This document shows, one piece after another, positions 1,849-47,884 of a stretch of 64,000 nucleotides of DNA. A program made the translations under genes and the position numbers. The stretch comes from a virus: the UHGV virus genome UHGV-1558314. The stretch is one strand, 5' to 3'. The stretch's first letter is position 1, and each line of letters starts with the position of its first letter. Under the pieces are notes generated by a model that was not told the DNA's origin, did no database searches, and worked only from the letters and a program-made list of their open reading frames with translations.

Positions 1849-4800
1849 TTAACAAATTGATGACGTGCCATCAGTATTTGCTACAACTGTCAATGCACTA
1901 TCAAACTCATCTTGTTGCAATACATGGTCAACTATGAGTGTTTTGCGAATTGCAGAAAGCTTGGTAAGCAACTGCATCAACACTTGCTGATAATTGATAT
2001 TGTTGACATCATGCTCAGCGCCAACAATCTGCCCATTGCTAAGCTTGCCACTGATTTCGTCAATGAGCAAGATGTTGCCCACTTTGTTTAAGCGTTGAGT
2101 CAAAATGAGATGCACGATTGCAAGACCTGCGAAAGTTCCTTCCATGCCAGACATTTGACTTACACTTCGAATTGACTTCGAGCCCATCAAGTCAATCATC
2201 TTCAACACATTGTTGTCATTGATGTCAAAGAACACTCGGTAGTTCAATGAATCCAGCAAATCATTGAGCTGTGCATTCAGTGATGTTGCAATTGCTGCAA
2301 AGACATATGAAACTAAGCCTCGTTTGCTTGTGCACTGCTTATATGCATTGTACACCAAGTTTGCAATGTTCCACTTTTTCGAAGCTTGCAAATCTTTCTT
2401 GAGAGCTTCAATTCGCACATTGTTTGCTGATAAGTCTGCTTGCATTGTTGCAATTTCTGCATTGATGCTTAGCAGTTTTGAGTTCGCTTCAGTTTCATGC
2501 TGCTTAGCATCATCAATGTCGACTTGCAATGCAGCATTTGTTGTAATATGCTGCTGAGTTTGCTGTGCATGTTCAAGTGCAAATGCTGCAGCAGTCTTAT
2601 CAATCTCAAGTTGTTTAAGCGCAGACTCATATGTCGCTTTCTTATCATACTCTGCTTGAGCAATTTCAAGTTCAGCATTTATTGCAGCCAGTTCTGATTC
2701 TACTGTAGATTTTGATTGCAATACATCTTGCTTTGCTTGTTCAGCTTTACGTTTGATGTCTGCAAGTTGATTTGTGATATCTGCAATTTGCATTTTGACT
2801 GCTTCGACTTCAAGCAATGTTGCTGCAGTAGCCATTGGTTGTGCAATGAATGCATCTAAGTCTCTTTGCGCATTGACTACAGTTCTCTGCAAATCATTGA
2901 GCTTTTCTGCATGCATGTCATATGCTGCTTTGTGTGCTGGATTCAGTGCAGCAATTATTGCATTTGAATCTGTAACATCTATGATTGCTGCTTGCAGTTG
3001 CTCAATTTCATACTTCAAATTGCCAATTTTGACAACATTCTCATTGAATTGCTCTGTCTTTTGCGCACATTCTTGACGCAACTTAGCAAGCTCAGTTGAC
3101 AACCACAGCTTGTATGCTTGTCCTGTGCCAGATGTCAAGTCATTTGTACATACAGGGCATTTGTCGTTTTCAAGTTGCTTTTGCTTGTCTATAACATTGT
3201 CGATGTTTGTTTTTGCAGCAGATATTTCTGTTCTAAGTGCATTTTGAACAGTGTTGATGTCTTCAATTTGCTTTTGCAAAGCATCTATTTTTGCCCGAGT
3301 GTTTGCATTGTACGACTTGCCAAGATTTATCAGCACAGAATCAATGTGCTGCTTTGCTGCATCATATGCAAGCTTTGATTCATCAAGCTTTGTTCTGTAC
3401 AATGACTCTGCATGCGCAACTTCTTTCTGCACTTTTGCAGATAGCTCATTCTGTTTTGTAAGCAGCTCAGCATATGTATTGTGCAGCTGTGAGCCAGATG
3501 CTATGACATTTGTGTATGCTGTATTAGCTTCATTGTCAATATTAGTGAGTTGCTGCTCAATCTGTGCTTTTGCTGTTTGCAACTTAGACATATCTTGCAA
3601 TGCAAGTGCAGCAATGTCAAGCTCAACTTTGTGAATCTTTGCAATGATGCCATCGATATTTGCTGTTGCATCTTCTATAGTTAAGATGTCTGCAGGAATT
3701 TGATGTAGTTTCTTTGAGAGCTCTTCTACTTTTGCACGAGCTTTTGTAAGCTTCGCGGACCACTCTTTTTGATTATCTTGTCGTAACTGCAAAGAGTAAT
3801 TGAGTTCATTGCAAGTTGTATTGAGAGACTCAAGTTCTGCTTTTATTGCAACATCAGTCAATGCGGGCTTACTAAGGCCATCAAACAATGCAGCCTTTGC
3901 AGCATCATTAGAATTGCCAAGCTGTACAAATGTATTGATGCCAAGAGTATCAAGTAGCCAGTCATTCAATGAATTTGAGTCCATTGCAATGATTTGGTCA
4001 AGTAGTGTCTGATTGATACAAACATATCGCGACAATTCCCAGATAGAGCCAAAGATTGCATATAGCGTGTCTTTGATTTCATGCTGCGGCACTACGTAGT
4101 CATCTGACAATCTTACAAGCTGAACAGTCTCATTGACTGCTGACACGTTATCTCGCCATGAGCCATCTGCATTTATTCGAGAACCTCGTTTGAATTTGCG
4201 TTCAAGTGTTCGAATCAATTTGTAGTGAACATTTTGACCTGCTACTACATGCACAAAGACACAAGAAGCTTCAAGCTTATCATATGACTCATTGTCAATC
4301 AATTTGTCATTGAAGTATGTCAAAGCGTTCTGCTTTGTTGCTGCAGAAGACTGTTCAGCGTCAATAAAGCCAGTCAGCAGCCATTTGATAAGTCTGAAGA
4401 TTGTAGTCTTGCCATTGCCATTGTTGCCTCTAACTTGTGTAAGCTGTGCAAGATTGTCAAAGCTGACATCAACATCTTTCAATGCCATGAACTGATTTGC
4501 TTTAACATTTTGAATGACATATTTTGCAACTTCAGTGTCAAAAGACAATTTATCAATTTGTTCATCAATCAATGACTTGAACATGTCAACAAACTGCTGA
4601 GCATCTTCAGTAGCAACTATGGCATTGCGTTCAATGTATGCATTGACCCAGTCAAGTGCAGCGTCTTTAAGCCATTCAGCAGTTTGAACCTTTTGCAGCA
4701 AATTGTCGCCATTTGCGTCTACAGCATTGATTGAATCAATGACAGCAGAATCATACAGAATGTCAATTGCAGCAACAACATATGAACTTACAAGATTCTG

Positions 4801-5775
4801 TGCAATGCGCTCAACAATACCAGACAGTTCGGGCTTTGTGACCTTTGACTTGATTTTGATTTTATTGATGCGGCCAGGGTTGATGAGTGCAATCTTGTCT
4901 GTTTTGACATCATTATCAATTGTGATTGTATGATAATGCACAAGCTGCTCAAGTGGATGCCACTCTACCACAATTCGCTTGTTGTCAATATCGATGTCAA
5001 GCAAGTTGTAGCCATGTTCTGCAGTACCATGCTGTATTGCAGTGTCATTCAACAAATAGTCGCCTTCACCAAAATCTCTGACAATTGGCGAGCCGCAATA
5101 TGTTAATGTCTTATCACCAGCAACCCATATTGCATGCTTATGAATGTCACCCATTGCAACAAAGTTGCTATTAAATTGCATTGCATCTATACGACTGTCA
5201 TTGTCACCACGAACAATACAATCATCAAAGTTGACACAATTCTTTACAGGGTCATGGAACAGCTCAATGACACACATTGATGACAATGCTGCAATCTGCG
5301 ATTCATCAAGTGATGCCCAAGGCGAATATGTGCCACCAGACCACTTCTCATTTTGAGCCCATACTGCAGCAGCAAAACCAGGTGCAAGCAGTTCAACTCT
5401 TGAACTGTTGATATACTTGATTCGCTTGTCATCAATTGCAGTTACAAGCTTGTCAATGCTATCTGTCCACTGCATTTGTGAACCATCACCAGCATCAAAT
5501 GTGTTATCACGTTGCTTCAAATCATGATTGCCAGCAGTAATGACAATTTGAAGCTTGTCATTGACTTCAAGCATGCCTTTGAGCAGCTTAACAAACAGCG
5601 ACTCTTCAAGTGAATTGCTATTCCAATGCTCAAACACGTCGCCGACAATGAATACAAACTCAACTGACTTTGCTTTGTCAATTAGTTGTTTGTTGATGTG
5701 CTCATATTCTACGAAACGTCGTAAATGACCTTGTCGAACATTATATTGAATGTCTGCTATGTGAAGTGCTTTCAT
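1849..5775 (-). CDS. fused Mre11/SbcD-like nuclease and Rad50/SbcC-like ATPase
   Basis: N-terminal metallophosphoesterase motifs (LHIADIQ, GDVFEH, GNHD, GDIHKH); Walker A GNNGNGKTT; long coiled coil with CPVC zinc hook; C-terminal signature SGMEG, Walker B LLIDE, H-loop DHV. Confidence 0.8.
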   Translation of the reverse strand: MKALHIADIQYNVRQGHLRRFVEYEHINKQLIDKAKSVEFVFIVGDVFEHWNSNSLEESLFVKLLKGMLEVNDKLQIVITAGNHDLKQRDNTFDAGDGSQMQWTDSIDKLVTAIDDKRIKYINSSRVELLAPGFAAAVWAQNEKWSGGTYSPWASLDESQIAALSSMCVIELFHDPVKNCVNFDDCIVRGDNDSRIDAMQFNSNFVAMGDIHKHAIWVAGDKTLTYCGSPIVRDFGEGDYLLNDTAIQHGTAEHGYNLLDIDIDNKRIVVEWHPLEQLVHYHTITIDNDVKTDKIALINPGRINKIKIKSKVTKPELSGIVERIAQNLVSSYVVAAIDILYDSAVIDSINAVDANGDNLLQKVQTAEWLKDAALDWVNAYIERNAIVATEDAQQFVDMFKSLIDEQIDKLSFDTEVAKYVIQNVKANQFMALKDVDVSFDNLAQLTQVRGNNGNGKTTIFRLIKWLLTGFIDAEQSSAATKQNALTYFNDKLIDNESYDKLEASCVFVHVVAGQNVHYKLIRTLERKFKRGSRINADGSWRDNVSAVNETVQLVRLSDDYVVPQHEIKDTLYAIFGSIWELSRYVCINQTLLDQIIAMDSNSLNDWLLDTLGINTFVQLGNSNDAAKAALFDGLSKPALTDVAIKAELESLNTTCNELNYSLQLRQDNQKEWSAKLTKARAKVEELSKKLHQIPADILTIEDATANIDGIIAKIHKVELDIAALALQDMSKLQTAKAQIEQQLTNIDNEANTAYTNVIASGSQLHNTYAELLTKQNELSAKVQKEVAHAESLYRTKLDESKLAYDAAKQHIDSVLINLGKSYNANTRAKIDALQKQIEDINTVQNALRTEISAAKTNIDNVIDKQKQLENDKCPVCTNDLTSGTGQAYKLWLSTELAKLRQECAQKTEQFNENVVKIGNLKYEIEQLQAAIIDVTDSNAIIAALNPAHKAAYDMHAEKLNDLQRTVVNAQRDLDAFIAQPMATAATLLEVEAVKMQIADITNQLADIKRKAEQAKQDVLQSKSTVESELAAINAELEIAQAEYDKKATYESALKQLEIDKTAAAFALEHAQQTQQHITTNAALQVDIDDAKQHETEANSKLLSINAEIATMQADLSANNVRIEALKKDLQASKKWNIANLVYNAYKQCTSKRGLVSYVFAAIATSLNAQLNDLLDSLNYRVFFDINDNNVLKMIDLMGSKSIRSVSQMSGMEGTFAGLAIVHLILTQRLNKVGNILLIDEISGKLSNGQIVGAEHDVNNINYQQVLMQLLTKLSAIRKTLIVDHVLQQDEFDSALTVVANTDGTSSIC

Positions 5776-10461: not shown

Positions 10462-12018
10462 TCATTGCACTTCTACGAATGGCTCTTTCAACACAAAGCT
10501 GTCACCATTGCAACATGCGGCTGAGCCATCGTCTGCATCAAGTGCGCATGACATATCAGACTTGCAGAACTTGCAATATGAACATGACCATGCATGACTC
10601 ATAAAGTTGTTTGCTTCACAAATTACACAGCGCTCATGTGAAAGTGTATTGTCGCAATTGTCACAAGACTTCTTGATTGGCACATCTTTATTGATATATG
10701 CAAGATGCAATGCAATATCATACACAAAGTCACCCGTATATTGCTGAATGAAATCAGTGTGCCACAACTCTTTTAACAATTGTGTATGTCTATATGGCTG
10801 AACAATGTCTTCAAGATGCTGCAAGTCATCATCGCTAACCATGAGCTTCTTAATGACAAACTGTTTGAACTGCGGCCATCTGTCAAACATATAGAGTTTG
10901 CATGAGTTGTGCACAAGTGGAACACAGCCAAGCACAATGCTTTCACAGAATCTACGCAAACTAAAACAGTTTGCATCATATGACGGCACAATCAATGTGA
11001 ATCTGCTATGCTTGATGAGTTCAAGGTATGTGTCATATGGCAGTAGCTTGTCTGACAATGGCTGCTGTTGCTTGTCCCTGCTGAAAAATCTGAACACAAT
11101 GCCTTTATCAATTGCATCTTGATTGTGCAGATGCATGAGTTTGTTGATGAGTTCTGTGCGTTCAGTTTTGTCTCGCCAAGTATTCGTCAATGCAAATGCA
11201 AAATTCAGTCGCTTGTCATCAAACGTCGCTTCAATGTCATCCCAAGTTTTGTCATGCAAATACCAGTATTGCTGTGATGGGCACCATCCATAATATGCAA
11301 TAGCGTCTTGTTCTGCTGTAACGTCATACACATATGCAGAATTGTATTCAAGGCCAAGCCCTTTGACATTGTTGCAGTCATGAAAGTACCAATGCTGCAC
11401 TTTGAATATCTTTGATGCACTGAATGCGCTTTCATATGGCCCTGAATAGCGATAGTCAATGTAATTGAGCTTGTGCTGCAATGGGTCTTCGACAAAGTTG
11501 TTTATGACTGTGCCTTGTTGTTTGCCATTAGTCTTGCGAGCATTCAATGCAATATTGTACTGCATAATGACTGACAGCATCTCATACACTACATACATGA
11601 GTGCTTTGTAGACTGAGCCTGCTGCGTCAATTAGCGGCAAATCACGTTTGACTGATGCAGTACCAAATGTCTTGCAATATGCAGAAAATGTATCAAGTTC
11701 TGCCTGTTGAAATGAATTGCATGCGCCATTGAATATGTTGAATGTTGCAATGTAGCTCATATTACAAGATGTCATTGACATATCAAGACGCTTCATAATG
11801 TCAGCAATGCGACATTGAGCAAAATCTGACACATCAACATATTTGACATGATGACCTGATGCAGTCAAGCCAACTGCGACTTCTTTCATTTGTGGCACAA
11901 AGCCTACTACAATGAACAAGTCATCTTTGTTTGCTCGTTCAAACATTGCTGCACTTTTCCAAGTCAATGAATTGAAAAAGTCTATGTAGCCAGTCTGTGT
12001 GATGATATGTGTTCTCAT
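10462..12018 (-). CDS. glycosyltransferase-like protein (exostosin/GT47-like motif) with C-terminal Cys-rich extension
   Basis: NFVEDPLQHKLNYID, PSQQYWY, FTLIVPSYDANCFSLRRFCESIVLGCVPLV; Cys-rich tail (CDNCDN...CVICE...CSYCKFC). Confidence 0.5.
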   Translation of the reverse strand: MRTHIITQTGYIDFFNSLTWKSAAMFERANKDDLFIVVGFVPQMKEVAVGLTASGHHVKYVDVSDFAQCRIADIMKRLDMSMTSCNMSYIATFNIFNGACNSFQQAELDTFSAYCKTFGTASVKRDLPLIDAAGSVYKALMYVVYEMLSVIMQYNIALNARKTNGKQQGTVINNFVEDPLQHKLNYIDYRYSGPYESAFSASKIFKVQHWYFHDCNNVKGLGLEYNSAYVYDVTAEQDAIAYYGWCPSQQYWYLHDKTWDDIEATFDDKRLNFAFALTNTWRDKTERTELINKLMHLHNQDAIDKGIVFRFFSRDKQQQPLSDKLLPYDTYLELIKHSRFTLIVPSYDANCFSLRRFCESIVLGCVPLVHNSCKLYMFDRWPQFKQFVIKKLMVSDDDLQHLEDIVQPYRHTQLLKELWHTDFIQQYTGDFVYDIALHLAYINKDVPIKKSCDNCDNTLSHERCVICEANNFMSHAWSCSYCKFCKSDMSCALDADDGSAACCNGDSFVLKEPFVEVQ

Positions 12019-25913: not shown

Positions 25914-26837
25914 TTACATTGAGATGTTAAGAATTCGCTTGACTACAGAATCGATATCATTGTTTGCAGCATTGCACAGTTCCATGCGAACATTAGAATC
26001 AATGAACAAGTTATGAAACGTTGACGCAGCTTGAACAAGATGACACCAGATTGCTCGTCTACACATTGCAAGTTCTCTGTCAGCTTTGCTGCATTGCATG
26101 AGATACGAGTTTGCTCTATCACTGTAATATGACTGAGCATACTTGCATTGACGTTCAGCGTCATTTACAATGTACATGTATGGAGTCTTGACGTCAAAGT
26201 AAATTTTGCAATACAATGACTTGTCATCAATTGCAAAGTCATCAATATTGACAGTCAAATCTGTCATTGCATACGTCAAACCTCTGTCATGCAAATATGC
26301 AAACATTGCAGTATAGCATTGATGCAATGTAGCAATCAATTCACATTTGTCAGTTGACTGAACAACTTTGTATGCTGCTTTGATTGCCTTTGCATATATG
26401 AGCTGCAAACACAGCTCTTTGCGACGCAATGCTTTGCGTTCAAATTGTCGCTCATATTTGATGTGCTTACGTATGCGTTTGCGTTCTGTAAGCAATTTCG
26501 ACAAGTCAATACGAATGTATTTTGATACATTTGTAACAGCGGTGTCAATACTGTGCCACTGTTCAATGTCGTCAATGTCAAGTTCATGCGCAAGTGAATG
26601 TGACACTCTGCCGTACATGTATAAGACTTTGCAGTTGTCATCGCATAATGCATACATACACCATGATGACAGTTCAATGTCATGCTCAAATGTGGCAAAA
26701 TCAACTTCTACTGCAATATTTGCGTTTGTGCATATGCATTTTTGAATGTCAATGTCACTTAAGTACCACTTGAAAAATGAATCGACTTCTGCAGAATGTT
26801 GACTTATGATGCGCTTGAACAGCTTGTTCGATTTCAT
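25914..26837 (-). CDS. hypothetical protein
   Basis: 307-aa ORF. Confidence 0.45.
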   Translation of the reverse strand: MKSNKLFKRIISQHSAEVDSFFKWYLSDIDIQKCICTNANIAVEVDFATFEHDIELSSWCMYALCDDNCKVLYMYGRVSHSLAHELDIDDIEQWHSIDTAVTNVSKYIRIDLSKLLTERKRIRKHIKYERQFERKALRRKELCLQLIYAKAIKAAYKVVQSTDKCELIATLHQCYTAMFAYLHDRGLTYAMTDLTVNIDDFAIDDKSLYCKIYFDVKTPYMYIVNDAERQCKYAQSYYSDRANSYLMQCSKADRELAMCRRAIWCHLVQAASTFHNLFIDSNVRMELCNAANNDIDSVVKRILNISM

Positions 26838-27136: not shown

Positions 27137-27616
27137 TTATTCATTATCGTCATCATATCCCATGCAATCTTCAAGACTTGCAAAGTCATCATCAAAGTCA
27201 TCGAATTCAGGCTCTTTATTGCACCATTTGTAAGGTGGATTGTTGAGCAATTCAAGCTCTATTGCATTTGACTGTGCAGAAATCGGAACATATTCGAATG
27301 CTTCGACTGACATATCAAATTTGATGCAATGCAGCCACGGAAACATATCAGTGTCCTCATGCACAATGGGCTGACGAACGTAGTCTTTCATTGCAATGAA
27401 CTTGCTGCTGTTGTCCCAGTCTTCAATAGGAATTTCAAACTGTGATATGGTCGTATGACAATCGTCAAAGAAATTGCAGGATACGCCTACAATAACGTGC
27501 GTGTCTGTACGTTGACGTTCTATTGCAAGAAAGTCGTGTTTCTTGGAAAGATGAACTTCTCCATGCTTCTCTAAAAAGATTTTAAGAAGCTCTTTGTTAA
27601 TGTCATTGATATTCAT
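27137..27616 (-). CDS. hypothetical acidic protein
   Basis: 159-aa ORF with Asp/Glu-rich C-terminus. Confidence 0.4.
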   Translation of the reverse strand: MNINDINKELLKIFLEKHGEVHLSKKHDFLAIERQRTDTHVIVGVSCNFFDDCHTTISQFEIPIEDWDNSSKFIAMKDYVRQPIVHEDTDMFPWLHCIKFDMSVEAFEYVPISAQSNAIELELLNNPPYKWCNKEPEFDDFDDDFASLEDCMGYDDDNE

Positions 27617-27950: not shown

Positions 27951-28015
27951 TGTTGTAGAGGTTTGTATACTATATTGATATATGATAATTGTACTACAAA
28001 TTTATCAAATTTGCA

Positions 28016-28133
28016 CTGATTTAATATATAATATGTCAATAAATTTCACATATAAAGTCTTTTCGCTTATGAAAACTACTCAACTCTGGTTTGAACGCCA
28101 GCAGTCAATCGCGGGGGGGCTCTTCGTGACACA
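28016..28133 (+). repeat. promoter/leader module, copy A (inverted partner at 31048..31160)
   Basis: About 113-118 bp near-identical to the reverse complement of 31048..31160, with 2-3 mismatches/indels by eye in the upstream part; contains ATG 28069 and G7 tract. Confidence 0.8.
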
Positions 28134-28185
28134 GGCATGCGCATATACGTGCGTGACAATGCTGATAACATTGTTAATGGGCTAA
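28069..28185 (+). CDS. leader ORF (MKTTQLWFERQQSIAGG...) containing a G7 tract; overlaps 28137..28769 in the -1 frame
   Basis: ATG 28069; G7 at 28113-28119; stop at 28185. The frame of 28137..28769 is open from 28095 (TPAVNRGGALRDTGMRIY...). Confidence 0.4.
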   Translation: MKTTQLWFERQQSIAGGLFVTQACAYTCVTMLITLLMG

Positions 28186-28769
28186 CTTGCTATTTGCACT
28201 GTATTGAAACAGGTCGAACACTTCAAAGAGACTTGCACACAAGCAATAATGGTGATGGCGTCACATTTTACATAACTGGTGATGACTATAAGCAATTAGT
28301 CGGCTCAACAAAAGACGCACAATTTTATCTTATTGACACGCCTGATGCTGCAGATATGTCTTGGTCATCTGCAGCATTTACACTTAGATATGGCGCAGAT
28401 ATAGTTAACAACACACTAAATGTCAATATTGAAGCGTTCAAATCATGCGAAGTAACAATAACTAACAGTGGCAATACATGCAGTTGCACCGCAATGCTTG
28501 AATCTGCATTGCCAGTGGCAATTAAACTGTCAACAATTTGCAATACATCAGTAGCATCTAATGTCGATGTGTCAGTTAACATAGCTGCAAATAGCTTGAC
28601 TGCTAATTTTAGAGTTGGCAATAGCTTATCTGCAAAATTGACGCATGTCGGCATATGGTCTATTGCTAATGCTTCTTATGTTTCACCAATATATGAGGGT
28701 GCTATAATTGTGAAAACACTGAACGACATATTTCACGTGTTCATAACAGATAAGACAACACTTGGCTAA
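28137..28769 (+). CDS. cassette protein 1 (210 aa), Ser/Thr/Asn/Val-rich; function unknown
   Basis: ORF on the rare plus strand, directly after conserved leader copy 1. Confidence 0.55.
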   Translation: MRIYVRDNADNIVNGLTCYLHCIETGRTLQRDLHTSNNGDGVTFYITGDDYKQLVGSTKDAQFYLIDTPDAADMSWSSAAFTLRYGADIVNNTLNVNIEAFKSCEVTITNSGNTCSCTAMLESALPVAIKLSTICNTSVASNVDVSVNIAANSLTANFRVGNSLSAKLTHVGIWSIANASYVSPIYEGAIIVKTLNDIFHVFITDKTTLG

Positions 28770-28804
28770 GTGTACATATCTTACAACATTCAAACATATA
28801 GCAT

Positions 28805-28858
28805 ATGAAAACTCCACAATTTTGGTTTGAGCGTCAACAAGGGCTAGCGGGGGGGCTC
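28805..28858 (+). repeat. diverged third copy of the leader module
   Basis: atgaaaactccacaattttggtttgagcgtcaacaagggctagcgggggggctc versus copy A; upstream part not conserved. Confidence 0.6.
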
Positions 28859-28861
28859 TAA
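28805..28861 (+). CDS. leader ORF copy 2 (MKTPQFWFERQQGLAGGL*) with G7 tract
   Basis: ATG 28805; G7 at 28849-28855; stop TAA at 28859-28861; about 75 percent nt identity to leader copy 1. Confidence 0.3.
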   Translation: MKTPQFWFERQQGLAGGL

Positions 28862-28898
28862 ATTAGTCTACCTGCAACTTGTTATTGGCGACGCTTCG

Positions 28899-29327
28899 TT
28901 GTACAACTTTGGCACTACTGAAACAATGGCGATACAAGGTACAATATCGCTTGACAATGTCACAGTTAACATACCAACGTCAGGCTTTCCTATCAAAATG
29001 ATGGAATGCCGCGGTGGTGAAACTCATGCAATTGGTGCGTTAATGATGCCAAAAGCTTATGACTACTCAAACTTTGCTGCAAAAATTGGTTTTGGCTGCT
29101 ATGCAGCAGATGGTCGTGGCACTGGCAACGTTTACAACATCAATGTGTATGCCAACATTAACAACACAAGCCCTGGTGGTAATCCCATACTGTTAACTTC
29201 TATGGCATGGCAATATCCATTAGGCGTTGGTGATAAGCTTACATTGCCAATGTCAAATCCATCTGTCAAAGTTAACAATGGAGATATCGTGTCAATCATA
29301 CTTAAGAATGCAAGGAAAGTCAGCTAA
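28899..29327 (+). CDS. cassette protein 2 (142 aa; ATG start probably at 28926)
   Basis: ORF-track start is TTG at 28899; in-frame ATG at 28926 (MAIQGTISLD...). Frame is +1 relative to leader copy 2. Confidence 0.5.
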   Translation: MYNFGTTETMAIQGTISLDNVTVNIPTSGFPIKMMECRGGETHAIGALMMPKAYDYSNFAAKIGFGCYAADGRGTGNVYNINVYANINNTSPGGNPILLTSMAWQYPLGVGDKLTLPMSNPSVKVNNGDIVSIILKNARKVS

Positions 29328-29351
29328 CTGACAGATGCATCACATATAAGC

Positions 29352-29390
29352 AATGCTCCACTGAGAAATCTCAGTGGAGCATTTTTTGTG
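29352..29390 (+). terminator. rho-independent terminator between convergent genes 28899..29327 (+) and 29412..29822 (-)
   Basis: 14-bp stem aatgctccactgag / ctcagtggagcatt, loop aaat, then TTTTGTG on the plus strand. Confidence 0.65.
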
Positions 29391-29411
29391 CTGTTTGGCA
29401 ATTTTAGACAT

Positions 29412-29822
29412 CTATATGCTATAGTATGCCCTATTGACAAGCAACACATAGTCACCACACAGTAATGCAGCGTACGACATCATGCAATCATCTTGCGGCG
29501 CACTGACATCTGCATATCCTTTTGCGTACATAACCATGTTGTTGTGCACAAAGTCAACTTTAGCATTTGCATAAATTGCATCAGTGCCACGGTCAACTAT
29601 AAATGATTCACCGCGTTCAAGCGCATTTGCATTAATTGTCACGGTAGATGTACCAGCATTAATGCTGTACAATGTATTTGGCACAGCATTAATGCTGGTA
29701 CTTGATACCGTCATAAACTTAGCAGCAAATATGCTATCAACCAAATCACCAAATTGTGCTGAGGTGGGTTTATCTCCGGTTTCAAAATACGTTTTGAGTA
29801 CCGAACGTGTTTGAACTGCCAT
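29412..29822 (-). CDS. cassette protein 3 (136 aa)
   Basis: Convergent with the plus-strand genes; upstream short ORF (29957 down to 29841) carries another G7 tract. Confidence 0.5.
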   Translation of the reverse strand: MAVQTRSVLKTYFETGDKPTSAQFGDLVDSIFAAKFMTVSSTSINAVPNTLYSINAGTSTVTINANALERGESFIVDRGTDAIYANAKVDFVHNNMVMYAKGYADVSAPQDDCMMSYAALLCGDYVLLVNRAYYSI

Positions 29823-30017
29823 ATGTTTCGATGTTTTAAGTTATGCAATGTGACATGAAAGCAACACTGCAAACTTTTCATCGAATGCAATGTCACCTAC
29901 GTTATAACAAGAGATTGAGCCAGATATGTGACCCCCCCAATTCAATTTGAATGTCATAAAGCTTATGAGTTTGTAAATGTTTGTTTTGTTTATATATTTT
30001 GACTGCCCATATGTACA

Positions 30018-30094
30018 TATCAAAACAACATCTTAGTTGTTTTGCATCTTGCATCAAAACAACATCTTAGTTGTTTTGCATCTTGCATCAAAAC
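30018..30094. repeat. tandem direct repeat, 34-bp unit x2.3, each unit with a 9-bp-stem hairpin
   Basis: tatcaaaacaacatcttagttgttttgcatcttg / catcaaaacaacatcttagttgttttgcatcttg / catcaaaac; internal inverted repeat caaaacaac-atctta-gttgttttg. Confidence 0.8.
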
Positions 30095-30269
30095 TCATAG
30101 GCATTGCATTCAAAGATGAAGATTTTACAGCAGACATTGCACTTGATAACGCGTCATTTTATGATGGCCAAACTGCATGGCTAACTGGAAAGCTTCTGGC
30201 AGCATTGTGTTAAGTATAAAACAGTTACATTGAAAGCTAACACAACAGTAAACATCGCCATTTAATGCA

Positions 30270-30315
30270 CATCAAAAACTCCACTGAACAATTAAGTTCA
30301 GTGGAGTTTTTGATG
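30270..30315. terminator. bidirectional hairpin terminator downstream of gene 30332..30985
   Basis: catcaaaaactccactgaac-aattaa-gttcagtggagtttttgatg; stem flanked by A5/T5 so either strand reads hairpin plus U-tract. Shares core CTCCACTGA with the 29352 hairpin. Confidence 0.6.
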
Positions 30316-30331
30316 TGTAGTGTGCAAAATA

Positions 30332-30985
30332 CTACAACATATTCCAGTTTGTTATGTCATACATGTTGAAGCTGAACGCTGATGTGATGTATCCAAGAGT
30401 AGTCAAGATGTCCACACCAACTACAGGGTCATTTGCAATAAGCAAAATACAGTTAGTGACAGACGTATCGACCATATTGTCTGCTTGAAAATCATTGTGC
30501 ATCAACCAGTCAGCAAAGCAGATGTCATAGTACACAGGATTGCCTGCAAATACTTTATCATTTCCAAATGCTTCTGATGGGTGCGACAATGTAGATGCAA
30601 GCAGTTGAATGTCTTCATCTGTGCAAGACGATTTAATGTCATCAAGCACAATTGCTACACGCTGCTCATTTGTCTCTGAATCACCTCTATGAATTTCATG
30701 AATCCAAGGCAAGCATGCAAGTGCATCACCACATGTCAAATTGACATTATCAAGTGTCTCGCCTTGACCTGCGTAGCAATATAAAGTGGAGCCAGTGCCA
30801 TAACGTAGACAGTCATTTATGCTGACATTATCAAGATACACTGAACAAATTGACAATGCACCTGCACCAAGCCTGTTTGCAGGAATTGTCAACTTATATG
30901 TTGGCACGCCATTTGACTGCACTGTAATAGGCGAGCCCGCTAATAATTCACCAGTGTCAGCATCATAGCATTCGACTTCTTGCAT
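30332..30985 (-). CDS. cassette protein 4 (217 aa)
   Basis: Preceded by leader copy 3 (ATG 31110, G7 at 31066-31060 on minus); gene frame is -1 relative to leader and open through the tract (TPAVNRGGALRDTIISGT...). Confidence 0.55.
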   Translation of the reverse strand: MQEVECYDADTGELLAGSPITVQSNGVPTYKLTIPANRLGAGALSICSVYLDNVSINDCLRYGTGSTLYCYAGQGETLDNVNLTCGDALACLPWIHEIHRGDSETNEQRVAIVLDDIKSSCTDEDIQLLASTLSHPSEAFGNDKVFAGNPVYYDICFADWLMHNDFQADNMVDTSVTNCILLIANDPVVGVDILTTLGYITSAFSFNMYDITNWNML

Positions 30986-31047
30986 AGTCGCATATGCAGC
31001 TTCAAGTAGTGAACCATCTGCTTTGTTGATAGTGCCGCTGATAATAG

Positions 31048-31160
31048 TGTCACGAAGAGCCCCCCCGCGATTGACTGCTGGCGTTCAAACCAGAGTTGAG
31101 TAGTTTTCATAAGCGAAAAGACTTTTTGTATGTGAAATTTATTGACATATTATATATCAG
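31048..31160 (-). repeat. promoter/leader module, copy B (inverted partner of 28016..28133)
   Basis: Reverse complement reads ctgatatataatatgtcaataaatttcacatacaaaaagtcttttcgcttATGaaaactactcaactctggtttgaacgccagcagtcaatcgcgggggggctcttcgtgaca. Confidence 0.8.
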
Positions 31161-31171
31161 GCAGCAATATG

Positions 31172-31210
31172 CACAAAAAAGAAGAGCATCGGTTAAAAAC
31201 CGATGCTCTT
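31172..31210 (-). terminator. rho-independent terminator after BACON-like gene 31259..31873
   Basis: Stem aagagcatcgg / ccgatgctctt, loop ttaaaaa; minus strand continues CTTTTTTGTG. Confidence 0.55.
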
Positions 31211-31258: not shown

Positions 31259-31873
31259 TTACGATACAGTCCACGGGCAGTTTGCGGTAACCGTAACCGT
31301 AACGGCAGGAGTACCGGCCTGAGGAATCGTGATTTCCTGCTTGTCGAGTACCAGCGTCGGGTCACCAGCAGCCTGAACGATTGCAATCTGAGCAGTCTGG
31401 GCACCGTTGGCAGTTACCAAAATCGATGTCGTGCGCTCGTTAATCGTCAAGTTGGCAGGAATGTCAAGCTCAATGCTGAAAGCAAACTCGGCGTTGGCAC
31501 CAGGGTCACCAGTGATTGCTACGCCATTGTTGGTTTCTACACCAGCAACTGCGTACTTTTTAGGCAGTTCGATAACAAACTCGCCGCCCTCAACGATGCT
31601 GAACGTCAGCTTCGATGAGTTAGATACACCGGTTACGGTAAGAGTACCGCCAGCTTTAGGAGCTGACATCTCTGAGCCGTTGTCAAATGACACGAACTCA
31701 GCCTTTGCAGTCTGCTGTACATTGTACGTTGAAGGCGCTGCAATACCAGCACCCTGAACGGTTACAACACCAGTACGTGCAATACGACCAGTGTGGGCGT
31801 CAGCAGAGTTGGAAATTGAACCATTACCCGAACCAGATGTCGGGCTAAGTTTCAACCATGCGGGTTTAGCCAT
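31259..31873 (-). CDS. BACON-like domain protein
   Basis: N-terminus MAKPAWLKLSPTSGSGNGSISNSADAHTGRIARTGVVTVQ fits the BACON pattern (W..s..sGsG.g......R.a.itv) as recalled from memory; paralog of the two downstream genes. Confidence 0.5.
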   Translation of the reverse strand: MAKPAWLKLSPTSGSGNGSISNSADAHTGRIARTGVVTVQGAGIAAPSTYNVQQTAKAEFVSFDNGSEMSAPKAGGTLTVTGVSNSSKLTFSIVEGGEFVIELPKKYAVAGVETNNGVAITGDPGANAEFAFSIELDIPANLTINERTTSILVTANGAQTAQIAIVQAAGDPTLVLDKQEITIPQAGTPAVTVTVTANCPWTVS

Positions 31874-31931: not shown

Positions 31932-32531
31932 TCAAAGAATTTTCCAAGAAGCGTTTGATGTCAAATTCATTGTGATTGTCGTGCCATCATCATCAACTGT
32001 CACAGATTCTGTACTCAGCACAAGAGTTGCTGCAGCAGCTGCTTGAGTAATGCTAACATTCAATGATTTGCCACCAGGAGTTGTCACTGTCAATACAAAT
32101 GATTTCTGTTCAATTGTCAAATTTTGCGGTATTGTAGCTTCAATTGACCATGCAAACTTTGCAATATATCCAGGGTCATTTGCAATTGCTGTGTCATTTG
32201 TTGCAGCGACGCCATTTGCTGTGTACGCAGTCGGAATGCTAAGATTCGGATTTGTAGTTGCAAACTTAAGTTTTGCTGCGTTAGACTCACCAGAAACAAC
32301 AATTTTTGTGGTTGCCGCAGAAACATTGTATGATGTTGTGCCAGATACAAATTCTGCAAGAGCAGCTTGGTTGATTGTTGCTTGCTTTGTAACTGTTGGT
32401 GTGGTCTTCGTTTGCACAGTCGCAATTGTGCTACGAATGCCTCTGCCGGTATGAGCTCCTGCAGTAAATGCCAGGATATCATTACCCTCACCAGACATTG
32501 GTGAACACTGTGCCCATATAGCTTTTGCCAT
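31932..32531 (-). CDS. BACON-like domain protein
   Basis: MAKAIWAQCSPMSGEGNDILAFTAGAHTGRGIRSTIATVQ; ends with ...NVSITQAAA. Confidence 0.5.
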   Translation of the reverse strand: MAKAIWAQCSPMSGEGNDILAFTAGAHTGRGIRSTIATVQTKTTPTVTKQATINQAALAEFVSGTTSYNVSAATTKIVVSGESNAAKLKFATTNPNLSIPTAYTANGVAATNDTAIANDPGYIAKFAWSIEATIPQNLTIEQKSFVLTVTTPGGKSLNVSITQAAAAATLVLSTESVTVDDDGTTITMNLTSNASWKIL

Positions 32532-32602: not shown

Positions 32603-35600
32603 TTATCGAACAAGGAATGATGTACCAACAACCATATTCGGGATTGCCAAGCCATTGCCAGACTGGCTTACTGCAACTGTGCCACTTGTGTAGCCTGACA
32701 ATGCAGCAGTAATTGTTGCCGACCTGCTGTTATCTGAACCCCAGTTGTTTGCAGCTGACAATGTCGAACCGCTGATTGTGAATGCACCATTGTTCGATGA
32801 GTACGTTGGAGTAACCGCAGCATCTGATGTTGTAGACTGACCTGTCGTGTACTTTGTGACAGTTCGACCTGTCGTAGACAATGTTGCAGTGCCACCAGCA
32901 GCCCCAAAGCTTGTAACAGTTGAGCTGACAATCAGAGTCTTCGTAGTCGAAGTCACACTGTTGGCTTCCTGTGTAGCAGTGATTGCTTTTGAGCCAGTTT
33001 GACCATTCAACGCAACCGTCATATTGACTGTAGCGGTTCTTGCAGAACCAGCAGTTGTGCCACGATTTGCAGCAGTCAATGAACCGGTTGTACTACTGTT
33101 AAGCGTAAAGCCAGTAGTTGTAGCCATACTGTATGAAATTGTACCGCCAGATGTAATAGTAGTTTTTGAACCACTTGTGTACGTTGCTGTCTGCGAGTAT
33201 GCTGGCGTGCCTGTTGGAGTCTTTGTTGCACCTGCTGCAGCAAATGTTGCATATGATGTTGCTGTAGTAACTGTGACTGCGCTGTATGATACACTGTTAG
33301 CTGCTTGATAAACATCAAGAGCTTTTGTAGCAGTCTTAGACCCTTCACCAGTAGCAGTTGCAGTCAAAGTGCCAATCTTTGTACGAGCTTTGACTGTAGT
33401 GCCAAGCGATGATGCGCTGACTTTTGTGCTATACGCAATGCTAACTGAACCTGGCCTTGTGCTGCCAGACGTATATGTAATTGTCTGTGATGCACTGATG
33501 CCAGACATTGATGCAACTTCACCGCCACCAGCAGGAATATCTGACACAGTTCCACCAGAAATTGTAACCGCGCCATATGTCGTAATTGCATTTGCAGCTT
33601 GGTACACATCGACTGCTTTTGTTCCAGATTTGCCATTGACTGTTACTGTAACAGTAGATGTTGTAATCTTTGTGCGGGCTTTAGCAGTAGTGCCAAGTGA
33701 ACTACCAGACACTGCGCCAGTAGACGTTGTTACACCAGTGCCAGACCATGATTTGCTGCCACCAGACGTAACTGTCTGTGTTGAGCCACTTGACCACATA
33801 ACTGATTGACTGAATGACACTGAAGGCGTAACTGAGCCACCCTTTGCAGGAACATCGCTATAAGTCATCGAAACTGTGGGCGTACCATATGTAGCAGCAT
33901 TAGCATTTTGAGATGCAGTAGCAGTCTTTGTTCCACTGATGGCTTTTGTGCCTGCAGCATTGTATGACGCAGTAGGCGTCCATGTAGCTGTTACAGTCTT
34001 TGTGACTGTCAGCGATGTAGTTGCGCCACTTGCAGTAGTGCCTTTTGATGATGCGGTTATAGCACCAGTAGATGTATTGAGTGCAGTGAACAATCCTGAT
34101 GCGCCTGGCCAACTATATGATGTTGTAGTTGACAATGAACCATACGTAGATGCTGGCGCAGTAGTTGAAGTACTGCCACTACTAAAATGGTATGTTACTG
34201 TGTTTGCACCATTTGACGGTGTAGATGTTCCGCCACCTGCAGCAATTGCAGGATATGACATCGAACCAACTGCAATATTGAGTGCAGTCACATAGTTGCC
34301 TGCCTGATAAATCGTGGCAGACTTGCTGGCAGATTTGCCATTCATTGTGACTTTAACAGTCAGTGTGCCTGCAGTAGTCTGGTTAGATATTGCGGTGTCT
34401 TTTGATTGCGCAGTGACTGTTGACGTATACTCAATTGTTCCGCCGCTTGTCAGTGTTTCTGTCGTCTTTTCACCAGTAGCATATGTCGTAGTTTTGACCT
34501 GCGAGTAAGTTACTGTGCCAGATTTTACAGAACCTCCGCTTGCTGCAATGATAGTTGCAGACGGCGTCAAGTTAACTGTGATATCGCTATATGTAACTGT
34601 GCCAGCAGATTGAGCTGCTTGATAAACATCTGCAGCTTTTGATGCAGACTTGCCATTGAGTGCTACTGTGACAGTCAATGTGCCAATCTTTGTTCGTGGC
34701 TTAACTGTTGTGCCAAGTGATGATGCAGTGATACCTGCTGCTGGACTGTATGAAATTGTTGCACCAGTAGTGATGTTCTGTGTTGAAGTTGATGTGTATG
34801 TTGCAGTCTGCGAATATGACACATTGCCGCTCTTAATTGTACCACCAGTTACAGGAATATCTGCTACAGTGAAGCTTGAAATTGTAACTGCGCCATATGA
34901 CACAGTGTTTGCAACTTGCTTGACTGTGCAAGAACCAGTTTTTGTAACACCGCCCTCAGTATATGAGCCAGAAATTGTAATGCTGCGTTCTGCGCCTACG
35001 ACTGTTGTGCGATTTGCTGCAGTTACTGTAGCAGTCGACAATGTAAAGCCAGTTGCTGAACCGCTAAGTGTTGCAGATACTGCAGCAGATGACGTTGAGC
35101 CTGATGCATATGTGTATGACGCTGTTGAAGTGATTGTAGTTGAACCGCCACCAGCTGCCAATGTTGCAGCGCCAGGTGTCAATGTCAAGCCATTCAGCGT
35201 CTTTGAGTTTGCAGTTTGTGTTGCAGTAGCAGTTTTTGTAGCAGACTTGCCATTGATTGCTACCGTAACTGTGACAGCATTTGAAGCATCAGTAGAGCCT
35301 ACATATGATGTGCCCATTGACGTTACAGTCAATGCGCCACTTGTCGTATTCAATGTCCAGCGTGACTTAGCAGTCATTGCATAAGACAATGTAGCGCCAC
35401 TTGTCAATGTGCCACCTGAGCCAGCTACGCCATTCCAAGTCCAAACTTGTGAATATGAAACAGTTGGGTTTGATGTACCACCAGCAGGAGCAATGTTAGC
35501 ATATGAGAATGTTCCAATGACAGGCGTTGCATAGACTTTAGCACCTGCAGCTTGGTTGAACGTAATATCTTTTGATGCAGACTTACCATTTGCAGTGACT

Positions 35601-36931
35601 GTCAAGGTGACAACAAACCCATTACGTGCAACAGTAGAATTGTTGTTTGTCACTGTGACATTCAAGCCAGACAAGCTGTAGCCTGTTGCAGCAGTTTTGA
35701 CGGCAGCAGTCCATATGCCGCCTGACGTGTTACTATCAGTTGAGCCGCTGCTGTATGTCATTGACTGCGTAAATGTTGCAGATGCATTAGCTGCAACAGT
35801 TTGACCTGCTACTGCAAGAGCAACTGGTGTTGTCTTTGTAATGACTGGTGTGCCGTATGTAATGCTGTTGGCTGCTTGTGTAATTGATACAGTAGCAGTT
35901 GCATTGCCATATGACGCTGTGCCGCTAAATGACCGAGCATCACCGACAGTCTTACCACGATTTGCAGATGTTACAGAATTTGCAGATATTGTAAAGCCTG
36001 TTGCAGTGCCTGTAATTGTTGGCTTGACATTTGTTTCAGTAGATGTAACAACACCGTTCCATGTCACAGTGTACGTACCAGTGATGGTTGATGTTCCACC
36101 TGCTGCAGTATGACTTGTTGAATATGTGTTCAAAGCAAGTTTGTACACAACTGAACCTGCAGCTTGTGAGCATTTAACGGTCTTCGATAATTCATGACCA
36201 CTTACAGTCAGTGTTGGTGTAACTGCTGCAGTTGACGTGTTGTTCGGTGTATTGACAGTGATTGTTGCAGGACCTGTGCCAGATGCTTTTGAGACTGACC
36301 AACCTGCAGGTACGCCCGAAATTGTCCATGCAAAGTCAGGATTACAAGAAATTGCGAATGTCTTCGATTCACCCTTTGCAACAAATGACAAAGTTTCTGG
36401 TGATACTGCCAATGTTGCACTTGCACCAGCTTGATTTACTGTAAATGTTGCAGACTTGCCACCAGGCGTTGACAATGTGAAAGTGAATGCCTTTGCAGCG
36501 ATTGCAGTATGTGCAGCAATCTGCACTCGTACAATGACTTCAAATTCTGCATTGACACCAGGGTCATTGTCAAAATTTGTATTAAGCGCATAATCTTTGC
36601 TTGCAACAGTTACGCCAAGCACTGTGCCACTTGCAGTACCGCCAGTACTGCCAAGCACAAGTTTTTGTGCATTTGTGACACATTTCAATGTTGCAATAGT
36701 GCCACCATTTGACGCAATGTTTGTAGATGCAACTGTAGCTCGTATAGTTTCACCAGGAGACTCTTGCAATACTGCACAGTTTTCAGTTACTACTGGTGAA
36801 CCTGTAGTTGTTTGCGCAGTAAAGCTGCCAGACCTGTTATTTCGACCAGTATGCACAGATGCTTTGACAGACAACTGTGAGTTGCCTGTGCCAACATCAG
36901 GTGTAACTGTCAACCAAGTAGGCTTTGCCAT
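32603..36931 (-). CDS. giant Thr/Ser-rich repeat protein with N-terminal BACON-like domain and many tandem Ig-like repeats (probable fibre/adhesin)
   Basis: N-terminus MAKPTWLTVTPDVGTGNSQLSVKASVHTGRNNRSGSF; repeated ~90-aa units ending NGKSASK....YQAAN. Confidence 0.6.
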   Translation of the reverse strand: MAKPTWLTVTPDVGTGNSQLSVKASVHTGRNNRSGSFTAQTTTGSPVVTENCAVLQESPGETIRATVASTNIASNGGTIATLKCVTNAQKLVLGSTGGTASGTVLGVTVASKDYALNTNFDNDPGVNAEFEVIVRVQIAAHTAIAAKAFTFTLSTPGGKSATFTVNQAGASATLAVSPETLSFVAKGESKTFAISCNPDFAWTISGVPAGWSVSKASGTGPATITVNTPNNTSTAAVTPTLTVSGHELSKTVKCSQAAGSVVYKLALNTYSTSHTAAGGTSTITGTYTVTWNGVVTSTETNVKPTITGTATGFTISANSVTSANRGKTVGDARSFSGTASYGNATATVSITQAANSITYGTPVITKTTPVALAVAGQTVAANASATFTQSMTYSSGSTDSNTSGGIWTAAVKTAATGYSLSGLNVTVTNNNSTVARNGFVVTLTVTANGKSASKDITFNQAAGAKVYATPVIGTFSYANIAPAGGTSNPTVSYSQVWTWNGVAGSGGTLTSGATLSYAMTAKSRWTLNTTSGALTVTSMGTSYVGSTDASNAVTVTVAINGKSATKTATATQTANSKTLNGLTLTPGAATLAAGGGSTTITSTASYTYASGSTSSAAVSATLSGSATGFTLSTATVTAANRTTVVGAERSITISGSYTEGGVTKTGSCTVKQVANTVSYGAVTISSFTVADIPVTGGTIKSGNVSYSQTATYTSTSTQNITTGATISYSPAAGITASSLGTTVKPRTKIGTLTVTVALNGKSASKAADVYQAAQSAGTVTYSDITVNLTPSATIIAASGGSVKSGTVTYSQVKTTTYATGEKTTETLTSGGTIEYTSTVTAQSKDTAISNQTTAGTLTVKVTMNGKSASKSATIYQAGNYVTALNIAVGSMSYPAIAAGGGTSTPSNGANTVTYHFSSGSTSTTAPASTYGSLSTTTSYSWPGASGLFTALNTSTGAITASSKGTTASGATTSLTVTKTVTATWTPTASYNAAGTKAISGTKTATASQNANAATYGTPTVSMTYSDVPAKGGSVTPSVSFSQSVMWSSGSTQTVTSGGSKSWSGTGVTTSTGAVSGSSLGTTAKARTKITTSTVTVTVNGKSGTKAVDVYQAANAITTYGAVTISGGTVSDIPAGGGEVASMSGISASQTITYTSGSTRPGSVSIAYSTKVSASSLGTTVKARTKIGTLTATATGEGSKTATKALDVYQAANSVSYSAVTVTTATSYATFAAAGATKTPTGTPAYSQTATYTSGSKTTITSGGTISYSMATTTGFTLNSSTTGSLTAANRGTTAGSARTATVNMTVALNGQTGSKAITATQEANSVTSTTKTLIVSSTVTSFGAAGGTATLSTTGRTVTKYTTGQSTTSDAAVTPTYSSNNGAFTISGSTLSAANNWGSDNSRSATITAALSGYTSGTVAVSQSGNGLAIPNMVVGTSFLVR

Positions 36932-46987: not shown

Positions 46988-47884
46988 TTACAGTGTTCCG
47001 CAAAGCAATTCACGTAAATCCATGCCGGCTTGTGTACTGTACTGAGCAATAAGATTACGTTCTGAATCAGACATACTCCAATAAATCTTATGCAGAGCTC
47101 TACGAATAATAGTATGAATGCCAGATGTGCTACAATTGAACTTCTTTGCAAGTTCTGCATGAGTTAACAAATCAGCATCGCCAAGGCCATACACATGTGT
47201 GAGTACAAGCTTTTCATTTTGAGTGAGTTGTTCAAATGCTCTTTGCAGAATCTTTGTGATACGTTTGTGAGCATCTTCGATTTCAAGAACTTCTTGGCCT
47301 GTTTTGAAGTCTGACCTCAAATCATTCTGAACTGGTGACCATGCGTCACCATCTTTGTCAAGTGTAGTGTCATCCTTGCTGATGAATTGCTTGCCTTCAA
47401 GAGCTCTTTCATATGCTCCACGAATACCAGTAGATAATTGTTGACTTGTCAGATTGAGTTCGTCAAGCACATATTTCTTAATCCAAGGATATGCATATGT
47501 GCTAAACTTTGCTTCACGAACTCCTGCAGGCAATACGCCTTCTACGTAATTCTTGGCTGCTATTGACAATCCAAGATTGCCTGCTTGAATGACGTCATCA
47601 AATGGAACCGAGCGTTTGCCAGATGCGAACCATAAGCTTCGTGCAACTGATATGACCAATCTTAAACAAGATTTGATAAGAGCTTCACGATTTTCTTGAG
47701 TCTTCTTGAATCGAGTAACATCACAATATCGCTTTGCAGTAGCCAGCGATTTGACTTCTTCAGGAGTAAGCTCATTCTCCATCCTCATTTGCTTGAGCTC
47801 TTCCTTTGTGTATAGACGTTCTCTTGTGATTCTACCTACGTCCTTTACGTAGCCTTGATTGATTTGTGAATTTGAACCTGCCAT
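46988..47884 (-). CDS. sigma-70-family RNA polymerase sigma factor
   Basis: Region-2-like LRLVISVARSL...FDDVIQAGNLGLSIAAKNY; region-4 helix-turn-helix LTQNEKLVLTHVYGL...LTHAELAKKFNCSTSGIHTIIRRALHKI. Confidence 0.75.
   Translation of the reverse strand: MAGSNSQINQGYVKDVGRITRERLYTKEELKQMRMENELTPEEVKSLATAKRYCDVTRFKKTQENREALIKSCLRLVISVARSLWFASGKRSVPFDDVIQAGNLGLSIAAKNYVEGVLPAGVREAKFSTYAYPWIKKYVLDELNLTSQQLSTGIRGAYERALEGKQFISKDDTTLDKDGDAWSPVQNDLRSDFKTGQEVLEIEDAHKRITKILQRAFEQLTQNEKLVLTHVYGLGDADLLTHAELAKKFNCSTSGIHTIIRRALHKIYWSMSDSERNLIAQYSTQAGMDLRELLCGTL

Follow-up and report, generated by a model that had tools for sequence, protein, structure and literature searches.

The 64,000-nt stretch of the virus genome UHGV-1558314 that was analysed here (hereafter the window) carries, at 28.0-31.2 kb, a cassette of small genes flanked by two near-identical inverted repeats. 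It was concluded, with a probability of roughly 0.7, that this cassette consists of clustered contingency (phase-variable) genes with hypermutable poly-G tracts, since clonal genomes related to the window differed almost only in the lengths of G tracts located behind start codons, and these lengths determine whether long open reading frames (ORFs) are joined in frame to a leader. A tract of seven G residues (G7), and not an inversion device, is the functional core of the repeated module. The source of the window is a new, uncultured tailed phage of the human gut with a genome of about 175 kb.

Leader modules, G tracts and reading frames

A preliminary description of this DNA, made from its letters alone, had noted inverted, near-identical modules of about 115 bp at 28016-28133 and 31048-31160. 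Base-by-base alignment confirmed them and moved their limits by only a few bases: the left arm was found to occupy 28024..28132 on the plus strand (109 nt) and the right arm 31047..31157 on the minus strand (111 nt), with 2,914 nt between them. The arms were the same at 108 of 111 aligned positions (97%), and the one substitution and one 2-nt indel that distinguish them were both in the upstream part, as had been described. The composition of the module was likewise borne out by the alignment. In each arm, an upstream stretch of about 45 nt precedes the ATG (at 28069 and 31110, respectively), after which come the leader of 17 codons (MKTTQLWFERQQSIAGG), the G7 tract and 13 nt (CTCTTCGTGACAC). 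This unit was termed the type-1 switch module; the left copy belongs to gene A and the right copy to gene C. The module was conserved in all relatives and was nearly invariant across lineages whose flanking gene bodies diverge by 5-8%. The high identity of the arms had been ascribed to recent duplication or gene conversion; set against the divergence of the bodies, it would fit gene conversion and would fit strong constraint as well.

A 26-nt leader pattern occurred three times in the window, as compared with 0.01 occurrences expected by chance. The third, diverged copy (28805-28859, plus strand; MKTPQFWFERQQGLAGG; 76% identity) has its own G7 tract and belongs to gene B. Between the leaders of A and B, the WFERQQ core was found to contain four synonymous and no non-synonymous changes. 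Because the change in this core was purely synonymous, the leader peptide appears to be translated and constrained. A scan for sigma-70 promoters returned sites no more frequently than expected by chance. A Bacteroides-type promoter motif (TTTG at 28010-28013 and TAAATTTC at 28040-28047) was guessed by eye; its spacing is non-canonical, and it was not relied on.

Four G7 tracts were found in the cassette, at 28113-28119 and 28849-28855 on the plus strand and at 29932-29938 and 31060-31066 on the minus strand, each located 19 or 44 nt after an ATG. They are the only G/C runs of at least five in the 64 kb, and every one is exactly 7 long, while a first-order Markov model predicted 0.015 G/C runs of at least seven. 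For A/T runs of at least seven, the same model predicted about 21 in these 64 kb (59% A+T), and none was observed. This scarcity of homopolymers suggests genome-wide selection against slippery runs, possibly owing to slippage-prone replication. Runs of six A or T residues were also depleted, roughly 3-fold.

In all three leader genes (A, B and C), the leader was out of frame with the long body ORF. Gene A (28069..28769, plus strand) is composed of a leader at 28069-28119, which ends in the G7 tract (28113..28119), and a body at 28120-28769, whose frame is -1 with respect to that of the leader. Its product is 38 aa at G7, and the full length of 233 aa is reached at G8 or G5. Gene C (30332..31110, minus strand) is built in the same way, with a leader at 31110-31060, a G7 tract at 31060..31066 (C7 on the plus strand) and a body at 31059-30332, again in the -1 frame; 56 aa are predicted at G7 and 259 aa at G8 or G5. 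In gene B (28805..29327, plus strand), which has the diverged type-1 leader with G7 at 28849-28855, the body is in the +1 frame, and the predicted product of 18 aa is extended to 173-174 aa at G6 or G9. All three genes are therefore out of frame (OFF) in the window, and in silico a single-G change in tract length restored ORFs of 173-259 aa (ON). The frames of the bodies are open back to the tract; in gene C, the open stretch that precedes the first internal ATG amounts to 25 codons.

Tract-length variation in natural relatives

When the DNA of the window was compared with 50,697 GenBank phages, no similarity match was obtained, and an exact look-up of the 210-aa ORF of gene A in the window returned no record. 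A pattern scan identified a 174,628-bp IMG/VR contig of about 94% identity, designated REL. A search with the repaired C protein yielded a 31-member cluster with gene calls of 217, 251 or 259 aa, and about 30 loci from gut metagenomes were obtained via the contigs encoding members of this cluster; some of the locus counts given below hold duplicates, as a few loci share one contig. The 259-aa member P0016, encoded at locus L004 with a G8 tract, starts with MKTTQLWFERQQSIAGGALRDT and is exactly the predicted G8 product of gene C. The calls of 251 aa corresponded to G6 alleles in which the gene caller had picked a TTG start in another frame.

Tract lengths differed among these loci. For gene C, G7 was found in 17 loci, G6 in eight and G8, the in-frame length, in one. 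Gene A, which is also in frame at G8, had G7 in six loci and G8 in one (L004, with the 233-aa in-frame product), in addition to interrupted forms of the tract. Gene F, a paralogue of C present in relatives, had G7 in nine loci, G6 in two and the in-frame G8 in one. In the short ORF upstream of gene D, which is long at G7 or G10, the lengths were G10 (12 loci), G9 (four), G8 (one) and G7 (one). Gene E, in frame at G9 or G12, had G10 in nine loci, G11 in seven and G9 in one. The tract of gene B behind a type-1 leader was G7 in all 15 loci, and this gene is in frame at G6 or G9. Natural in-frame alleles were thus found for C and A at G8 (both in L004) and for F at G8 (L017); REL supplied further ones, namely B behind a leader of another type (type 2, described below), E at G9 and a lipoprotein gene at G8.

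The clonal comparisons, which were made between consensus assemblies and not between reads, were the most informative. No substitution was found between L005 and L006, L007, L008, L010 or L012-L016 over 3.4-10.6 kb. L010 was identical to L005, and the other members of this set differed from it only by one to three single-base changes in G-tract length, so that at least six tract haplotypes were present. The remaining variation among the clonal loci consisted of two substitutions and a 2-nt gap in L009, two larger gaps in L011 and one T5/T4 indel between two loci. Similarly, L019 and L020, which come from different European Nucleotide Archive (ENA) assemblies, showed no substitutions and one tract indel over 10,717 nt. 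The interrupted A tract GGGGGGTGG was unchanged in five loci from four assemblies, and such invariance of interrupted tracts is what slippage predicts. Judged from these consensus assemblies, the tracts mutate far faster than the sequence around them.

In one metagenome study, aliquots from a small number of stools were reportedly sequenced many times, and the assemblies labelled COST17-2 presumably formed part of it. Several of the clonal assemblies bear run labels of PRJEB14847, the accession of that study (Costea 2017). If these assemblies represent aliquots of the same stool, the differing consensus calls are most simply explained by a mixed phage population.

Because homopolymers are error-prone and A, B and C are all disrupted in the assembly of the window, it was considered whether the frameshifts were sequencing errors or the genes were pseudogenes. 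The data leave this explanation hardly any credibility. The positions of the tracts were conserved across lineages diverged by 5-8%, and the tracts were found only at the 5' ends of genes. The bodies contained no further stop codons across about 30 loci, and in-frame alleles exist. Moreover, the tracts were the sole variable sites in clonal sets that had been produced by different assembly pipelines.

It is also conceivable that G7 is a designed ground state and that the protein is obtained from it via RNA-polymerase slippage (+1 G) or via -1 frameshifting on G GGG GGG, changes in DNA length being secondary noise. That transcription can slip on homopolymers is well established, and the four type-1 modules, those of A, C, F and a gene of locus L001, all have a modal length of G7 and need exactly one more G, which is equivalent to a -1 frame shift. 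Read in the leader frame of A and C, GCG GGG GGG contains, in addition, a slippery heptamer of the formal type X XXY YYZ, and the consensus was OFF in most assemblies. However, gene B would require a shift the other way (-1 G or +2), and gene E is found at G10 or G11 although G9 or G12 is needed. No conserved stimulatory structure was recognized downstream: the sequences of A and C part 13 nt beyond the tract, and the downstream folds were no better than those of shuffled sequences (z = -0.5, +1.0 and -0.2), with only the L001 gene reaching -2.4. Variation in DNA length was directly observed and was nearly the sole variation in clonal genomes, and G8 alleles occur naturally. RNA recoding as the primary mechanism thus appears unlikely, although it may contribute alongside DNA slippage.

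Portability, orientation and gene content of the cassette

The leaders proved to be portable. The bodies of A, B, C, E and the L001 gene had no detectable similarity to one another, and only C and F were paralogous. In most genomes the body of B was located behind a type-1 leader (G7, OFF). The leader of this body in REL is of type 2 (MNITMNWGG), and with it G7 is in frame, for a product of 165 aa. The type-2 leader consists of ATG, four codons, AAC TGG and the G tract (M-x4-N-W); it was found at the head of the ORF upstream of D, of gene E and of gene B of REL. A further type-1 module was found in REL about 69 kb away on another gene (L001, at 68.9-70.0 kb of the contig), which has G7 and would be ON at G8.

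In locus L029 (ERZ27240671 k141_28264), the tract of gene A was G11 followed by AG. Two more type-2 leaders (MNNTMNW and G10), in opposite orientations, were attached there to E-like bodies. The arrangement of L029 indicates that the combinations of modules and bodies differ widely between lineages. REL was also found to encode a predicted lipoprotein of 333 aa that is absent from the window (L002, about 11,442-11,449, minus strand). It has an in-frame G8 just after the lipobox cysteine, the signal peptide MIKKMICIAVCAWMCASC and repeats like those of beta-propeller proteins.

The arms had been regarded in the preliminary description as substrates for inversion, by analogy with the host-range segments Mu G and P1 C. 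Arms of about 110 bp that are 97% identical do flank the cassette, and many metagenome contigs were found to end inside the leader repeat. Further, an inverted junction, composed of the left flank, the repeat, the body of C and the sequence downstream of C, was present in L025 and L026. However, these two loci (L025 assembled by SPAdes, with 5x coverage according to the contig name; L026 by MEGAHIT, k = 127) were identical over 3,466 nt and were therefore assumed to derive from the same source reads, and a chimeric join is possible. The reciprocal junction (the BACON gene, the repeat and the body of A) was not found among the loci; L029 and L035 start inside the leader. All other readable lineages kept the repeat in the standard orientation (the window, REL, L004, L015, L019, L020 and L030), and so did one clonal lineage, which was read in 24 contigs for each of the C and A sides. 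Pfam and PHROGs scans of about 45 ORFs of the window detected no serine or tyrosine recombinase, small ORFs and the other approximately 110 kb of the genome being outside the scan.

Each arm brings its own start codon and upstream region, and an inversion would swap identical 5' ends. As the control region and the start codon are the same in the two arms, the choice of expressed genes cannot be altered by inversion. Judged from the junction in L025 and L026, recombination between the arms has probably occurred, and to this extent the earlier proposal is supported. The analogy with Mu G and P1 C did not hold: it is highly improbable that the arms are crossover sites of a programmed invertible host-range segment, and it was concluded that the cassette is not a switch of that type and that the way in which the genes are arranged accounts for the inverted placement of the arms. 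The breakpoints of contigs from relatives coincided with three repeats: the leader repeat, the long tract of E and the conserved N-terminus of D.

The cassette had been described as two convergent gene sets meeting at hairpins at 29352 and 30270. Terminators were found at these sites, and the layout proved to be more complex, as it includes gene D and a remnant of gene E. Genes A and B, both on the plus strand, are followed by a hairpin terminator (29352..29383) common to convergent B and D. Gene D (29412..29822, minus strand; 136 aa) is preceded by a short ORF (29841..29957, minus strand) with the type-2 leader MTFKLNW and G7 at 29932-29938. At G7 or G10, this upstream ORF (MTFKLNW-Gn-HISGS...) is 38-39 codons long, and its stop lies 18 nt ahead of the ATG of D; at other lengths the stop comes about 60 nt earlier. 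RNA folding of the region upstream of D gave z = -2.1, which is not decisive on the idea of translational coupling. The divergent region that follows, between the upstream ORF and the position of E, contains two exact 34-bp tandem repeats (30019..30086), each with an internal palindrome. The repeat unit ATCAAAACAACATCTTAGTTGTTTTGCATCTTGC is present in two copies in the window and in up to about five, including diverged ones, in relatives (REL, L004, L005, L018 and L019); the repeats may be operator or promoter elements. The E remnant is an ORF of 58 aa (30037..30213, plus strand) at the position where relatives hold gene E with the leader MQIPRNW and G9-G11, the leader and tract having been deleted in the genome of the window. 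A hairpin with a perfect 22-bp stem (30268..30317) serves as a bidirectional terminator for C on the minus strand and for the E position on the plus strand. Upstream of the C module, the terminator (31182..31210, minus strand) of a BACON-domain gene (31259-31873) separates the two. An Rfam search returned nothing but spurious miRNA-like matches on the terminator hairpin.

Pfam, PHROGs and NCBIfam scans gave nothing useful for A, B, C, D, E or the REL lipoprotein. In an exhaustive HMMER search, C matched three representative clusters among 1.84 billion; because only these were found, the C family is confined to this phage lineage. The D family, with 43 homologues, has an invariant N-terminus of 34 residues (MAVQTRSVLKTYFETGDKPTxAQFGDLIDSALMA), a hypervariable body and a conserved C-terminus (LINRAFYK). 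Up to four D paralogues, in both orientations, were found in relatives (for example, L005 7676-9535). In REL, two plus-strand fragments of the motif encoding the N-terminus of D are located after the terminator. The structure of D was modelled with a predicted local distance difference test (pLDDT) score of 86, and Foldseek matched the model to the N-terminal region of TSP4 of phage CBA120 (E = 3.5e-4, template modelling (TM) score 0.46). Further matches included T4 gp9 and gp10 and many tail fibre or spike entries of BFVD (TM about 0.45-0.5). A profile of the D family compared with PDB sequences gave no match. With these moderate scores, the fold of D resembles those of tailspike and baseplate-attachment domains. 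Because the cassette lies beside BACON and baseplate genes and D has this fold match, a role of the cassette products at the virion surface or in adsorption is the best guess.

The window also encodes a helicase, a gp32-like protein, a dCMP deaminase, a sigma-70-like factor, a baseplate wedge protein and several BACON-domain proteins, and the presence of the latter indicates that the host is probably a member of the Bacteroidales. Three consecutive minus-strand genes next to the cassette, at 31259-31873, 31932-32531 and 32603-36931, encode proteins of 204, 199 and 1,442 aa with similar N-termini (MAKPxWLxxxPxxGxGN...HTGR). The 204-aa protein passed the Pfam cut-off for BACON, and the 1,442-aa protein matched BACON below this limit; the latter is a long repeat protein rich in Thr, Ser and Ala. 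The sigma-70-like factor (46988-47884, minus strand) has regions 2 and 4. A protein of 1,308 aa (1849-5775, minus strand) combines metallophosphoesterase and AAA_23 domains, like SbcCD. On the other side of the cassette, about 770 bp at 26038-26807, which make up most of a 307-aa ORF (25914-26837), are missing in REL, L022 and L023 and present in L030. In the clonal lineage, in the homologue of 27137-27616, a T5/T4 indel was the sole difference between L031 and L033; it splits a gene of 159 aa and leaves a call of 84 aa. The statement that the cassette is the only plus-strand coding island in the window was found to be true for ORFs not nested in larger minus-strand ORFs. Three plus-strand ORFs of 163-237 aa at 59026-60996 are nested in a minus-strand ORF of 1,240 aa (58125-61847). 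The G+C content of this region is raised (47%), its GC skew is strongly negative, and the nested ORFs, for which no Pfam match was obtained, are probably spurious.

Proposed mechanism and comparison with known systems

In the proposed mechanism, a portable 5' module comprising the upstream region, the ATG, the 17-residue leader, the poly-G tract and 13 nt is attached to unrelated bodies, and the tract gains or loses one G during DNA replication; this gain or loss is the part that was shown. Each such change would shift the long ORF into or out of the leader frame, as judged from the reading frames. Genes A and C would be ON at G8 and gene B at G6 or G9, which leaves all three OFF at the G7 of the window. 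A clonal phage burst would then be a mixture of expression states, and the payoff would most likely be stochastic variation of virion surface or adsorption properties. Recombination between the arms could flip the segment and would leave expression unaltered.

Several points weigh against this interpretation. The consensus was mostly OFF, with C being ON in 1 of 26 loci and B behind its type-1 leader having the OFF length G7 in 15 of 15, which is unexpected if expression matters often. That the type-1 modules are all one G short of ON also fits slippage at the RNA level. Heterogeneity within samples was deduced from differing consensus assemblies, and errors of Illumina assemblies are possible at G10-G11, while calls of G6, G7 and G8 should be reliable. 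For genes A, B and C, no homologue of known function could be detected, and an AlphaFold model of the body of C, computed without an alignment, was unusable (pLDDT 40). The evidence for an adsorption role consists of gene position and the moderate fold match of D.

A broader reading, in which DNA slippage and RNA slippage are combined, is put forward only tentatively and is itself unlikely to hold in full. According to it, a mobile stochastic switch, self-contained and made up of a control region, a conserved docking peptide and a poly-G tract, is pasted by recombination onto unrelated accessory or tail genes, and each burst is a combinatorial library of phenotypes. If this were true, five to seven independent switches would generate 32-128 states per clonal burst. 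RNA-polymerase slippage would act as a second tier, in which the ground state of one G too few gives low-level expression from OFF alleles. Recombination between modules, of which inversion of the cassette would be one form, would change the set of bodies present. The whole would constitute a dedicated bet-hedging device of gut phages, distinct from diversity-generating retroelements and from invertases.

As for the contingency-gene cluster itself, stochastic switching in phages has been documented in few systems, namely Mu and P1 inversion, diversity-generating retroelements, the poly-G tracts of Campylobacter phages and T2/T4. Here the poly-G strategy was seen in an abundant uncultured phage lineage of the human gut, and the evidence comes from natural populations. 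Owing to the modular design, with its leader common to unrelated genes, a sequence pattern would readily reveal further loci of this kind. In practice, gene callers mis-annotate the leader genes as truncated ORFs (217, 251 or 210 aa), and assemblies break at the locus. If the products are virion components, switching could explain heterogeneous adsorption and long-term coexistence with phase-varying hosts.

The closest precedent is provided by the Campylobacter Fletchervirus phages, in which receptor-binding protein genes contain hypermutable poly-G tracts of 7-11 residues (Sorensen et al. 2021, Cell Rep 35:109214). Both cases concern lytic phages with several G tracts in a tail or host-recognition region, frame switching and subpopulations. 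Unlike in Fletchervirus, the tract described here is part of a portable leader module of 17 or 6 codons on unrelated bodies, and one tract is located in a short upstream ORF. The host here is probably a member of the Bacteroidales, the proteins are unrelated, and the system is known from sequence alone.

Contingency loci with repeats in a 5' leader are also found in bacteria, for example, the CTCTT repeats of Neisseria opa genes and the poly-G genes of Haemophilus and Campylobacter. As in the cassette, a conserved 5' coding leader with a slippery repeat is common to several genes, paralogous or unrelated, which switch independently so that their states combine. The cassette differs in being part of a phage genome, in having a homopolymer and not a pentamer, and in the lack of an evident signal-peptide function in the leader.

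Homopolymer slippage leading to reversible frameshifts has been described for contingency loci of T2/T4 (Gomez, Barrick and Waters, bioRxiv 10.1101/2025.10.21.683753). Population heterogeneity results from slippage in these phages as it would here. However, the T-even loci are A/T-rich runs of at least six that are scattered over many classes of genes and under-represented in those for tail fibres. In the phage studied here, by contrast, the genome as a whole is purged of homopolymers, and the G tracts cluster in a single cassette, behind a dedicated leader.

The invertible segments Mu G (Gin) and P1 C (Cin) are similar to the cassette in that inverted repeats flank a cassette near tail genes and alternative small proteins are encoded in opposite orientations. 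Unlike in Mu and P1, no invertase was found among the approximately 45 ORFs of the window that were scanned, and the repeats of about 110 bp include the promoter-proximal region and the start codon. The Mu and P1 repeats are located inside the constant N-terminal coding part, whereas inversion here would leave the fusion of each ORF to its constant part unchanged.

Programmed slippage or frameshifting is exemplified by the 7A/8A editing of Ebola GP and by the G/GT tail chaperones of phages. In these systems, as in the cassette, the homopolymer in its ground state is one nucleotide short of the full-length frame. In contrast to them, the direction of the shift here varies by gene, no conserved stimulator was found after the tracts, and polymorphism at the DNA level was demonstrated. 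New in the present case are the phage lineage, the leader module common to unrelated genes and the tract in a short ORF upstream of a gene; of these, the common leader module resembles the opa-type leaders of bacteria.

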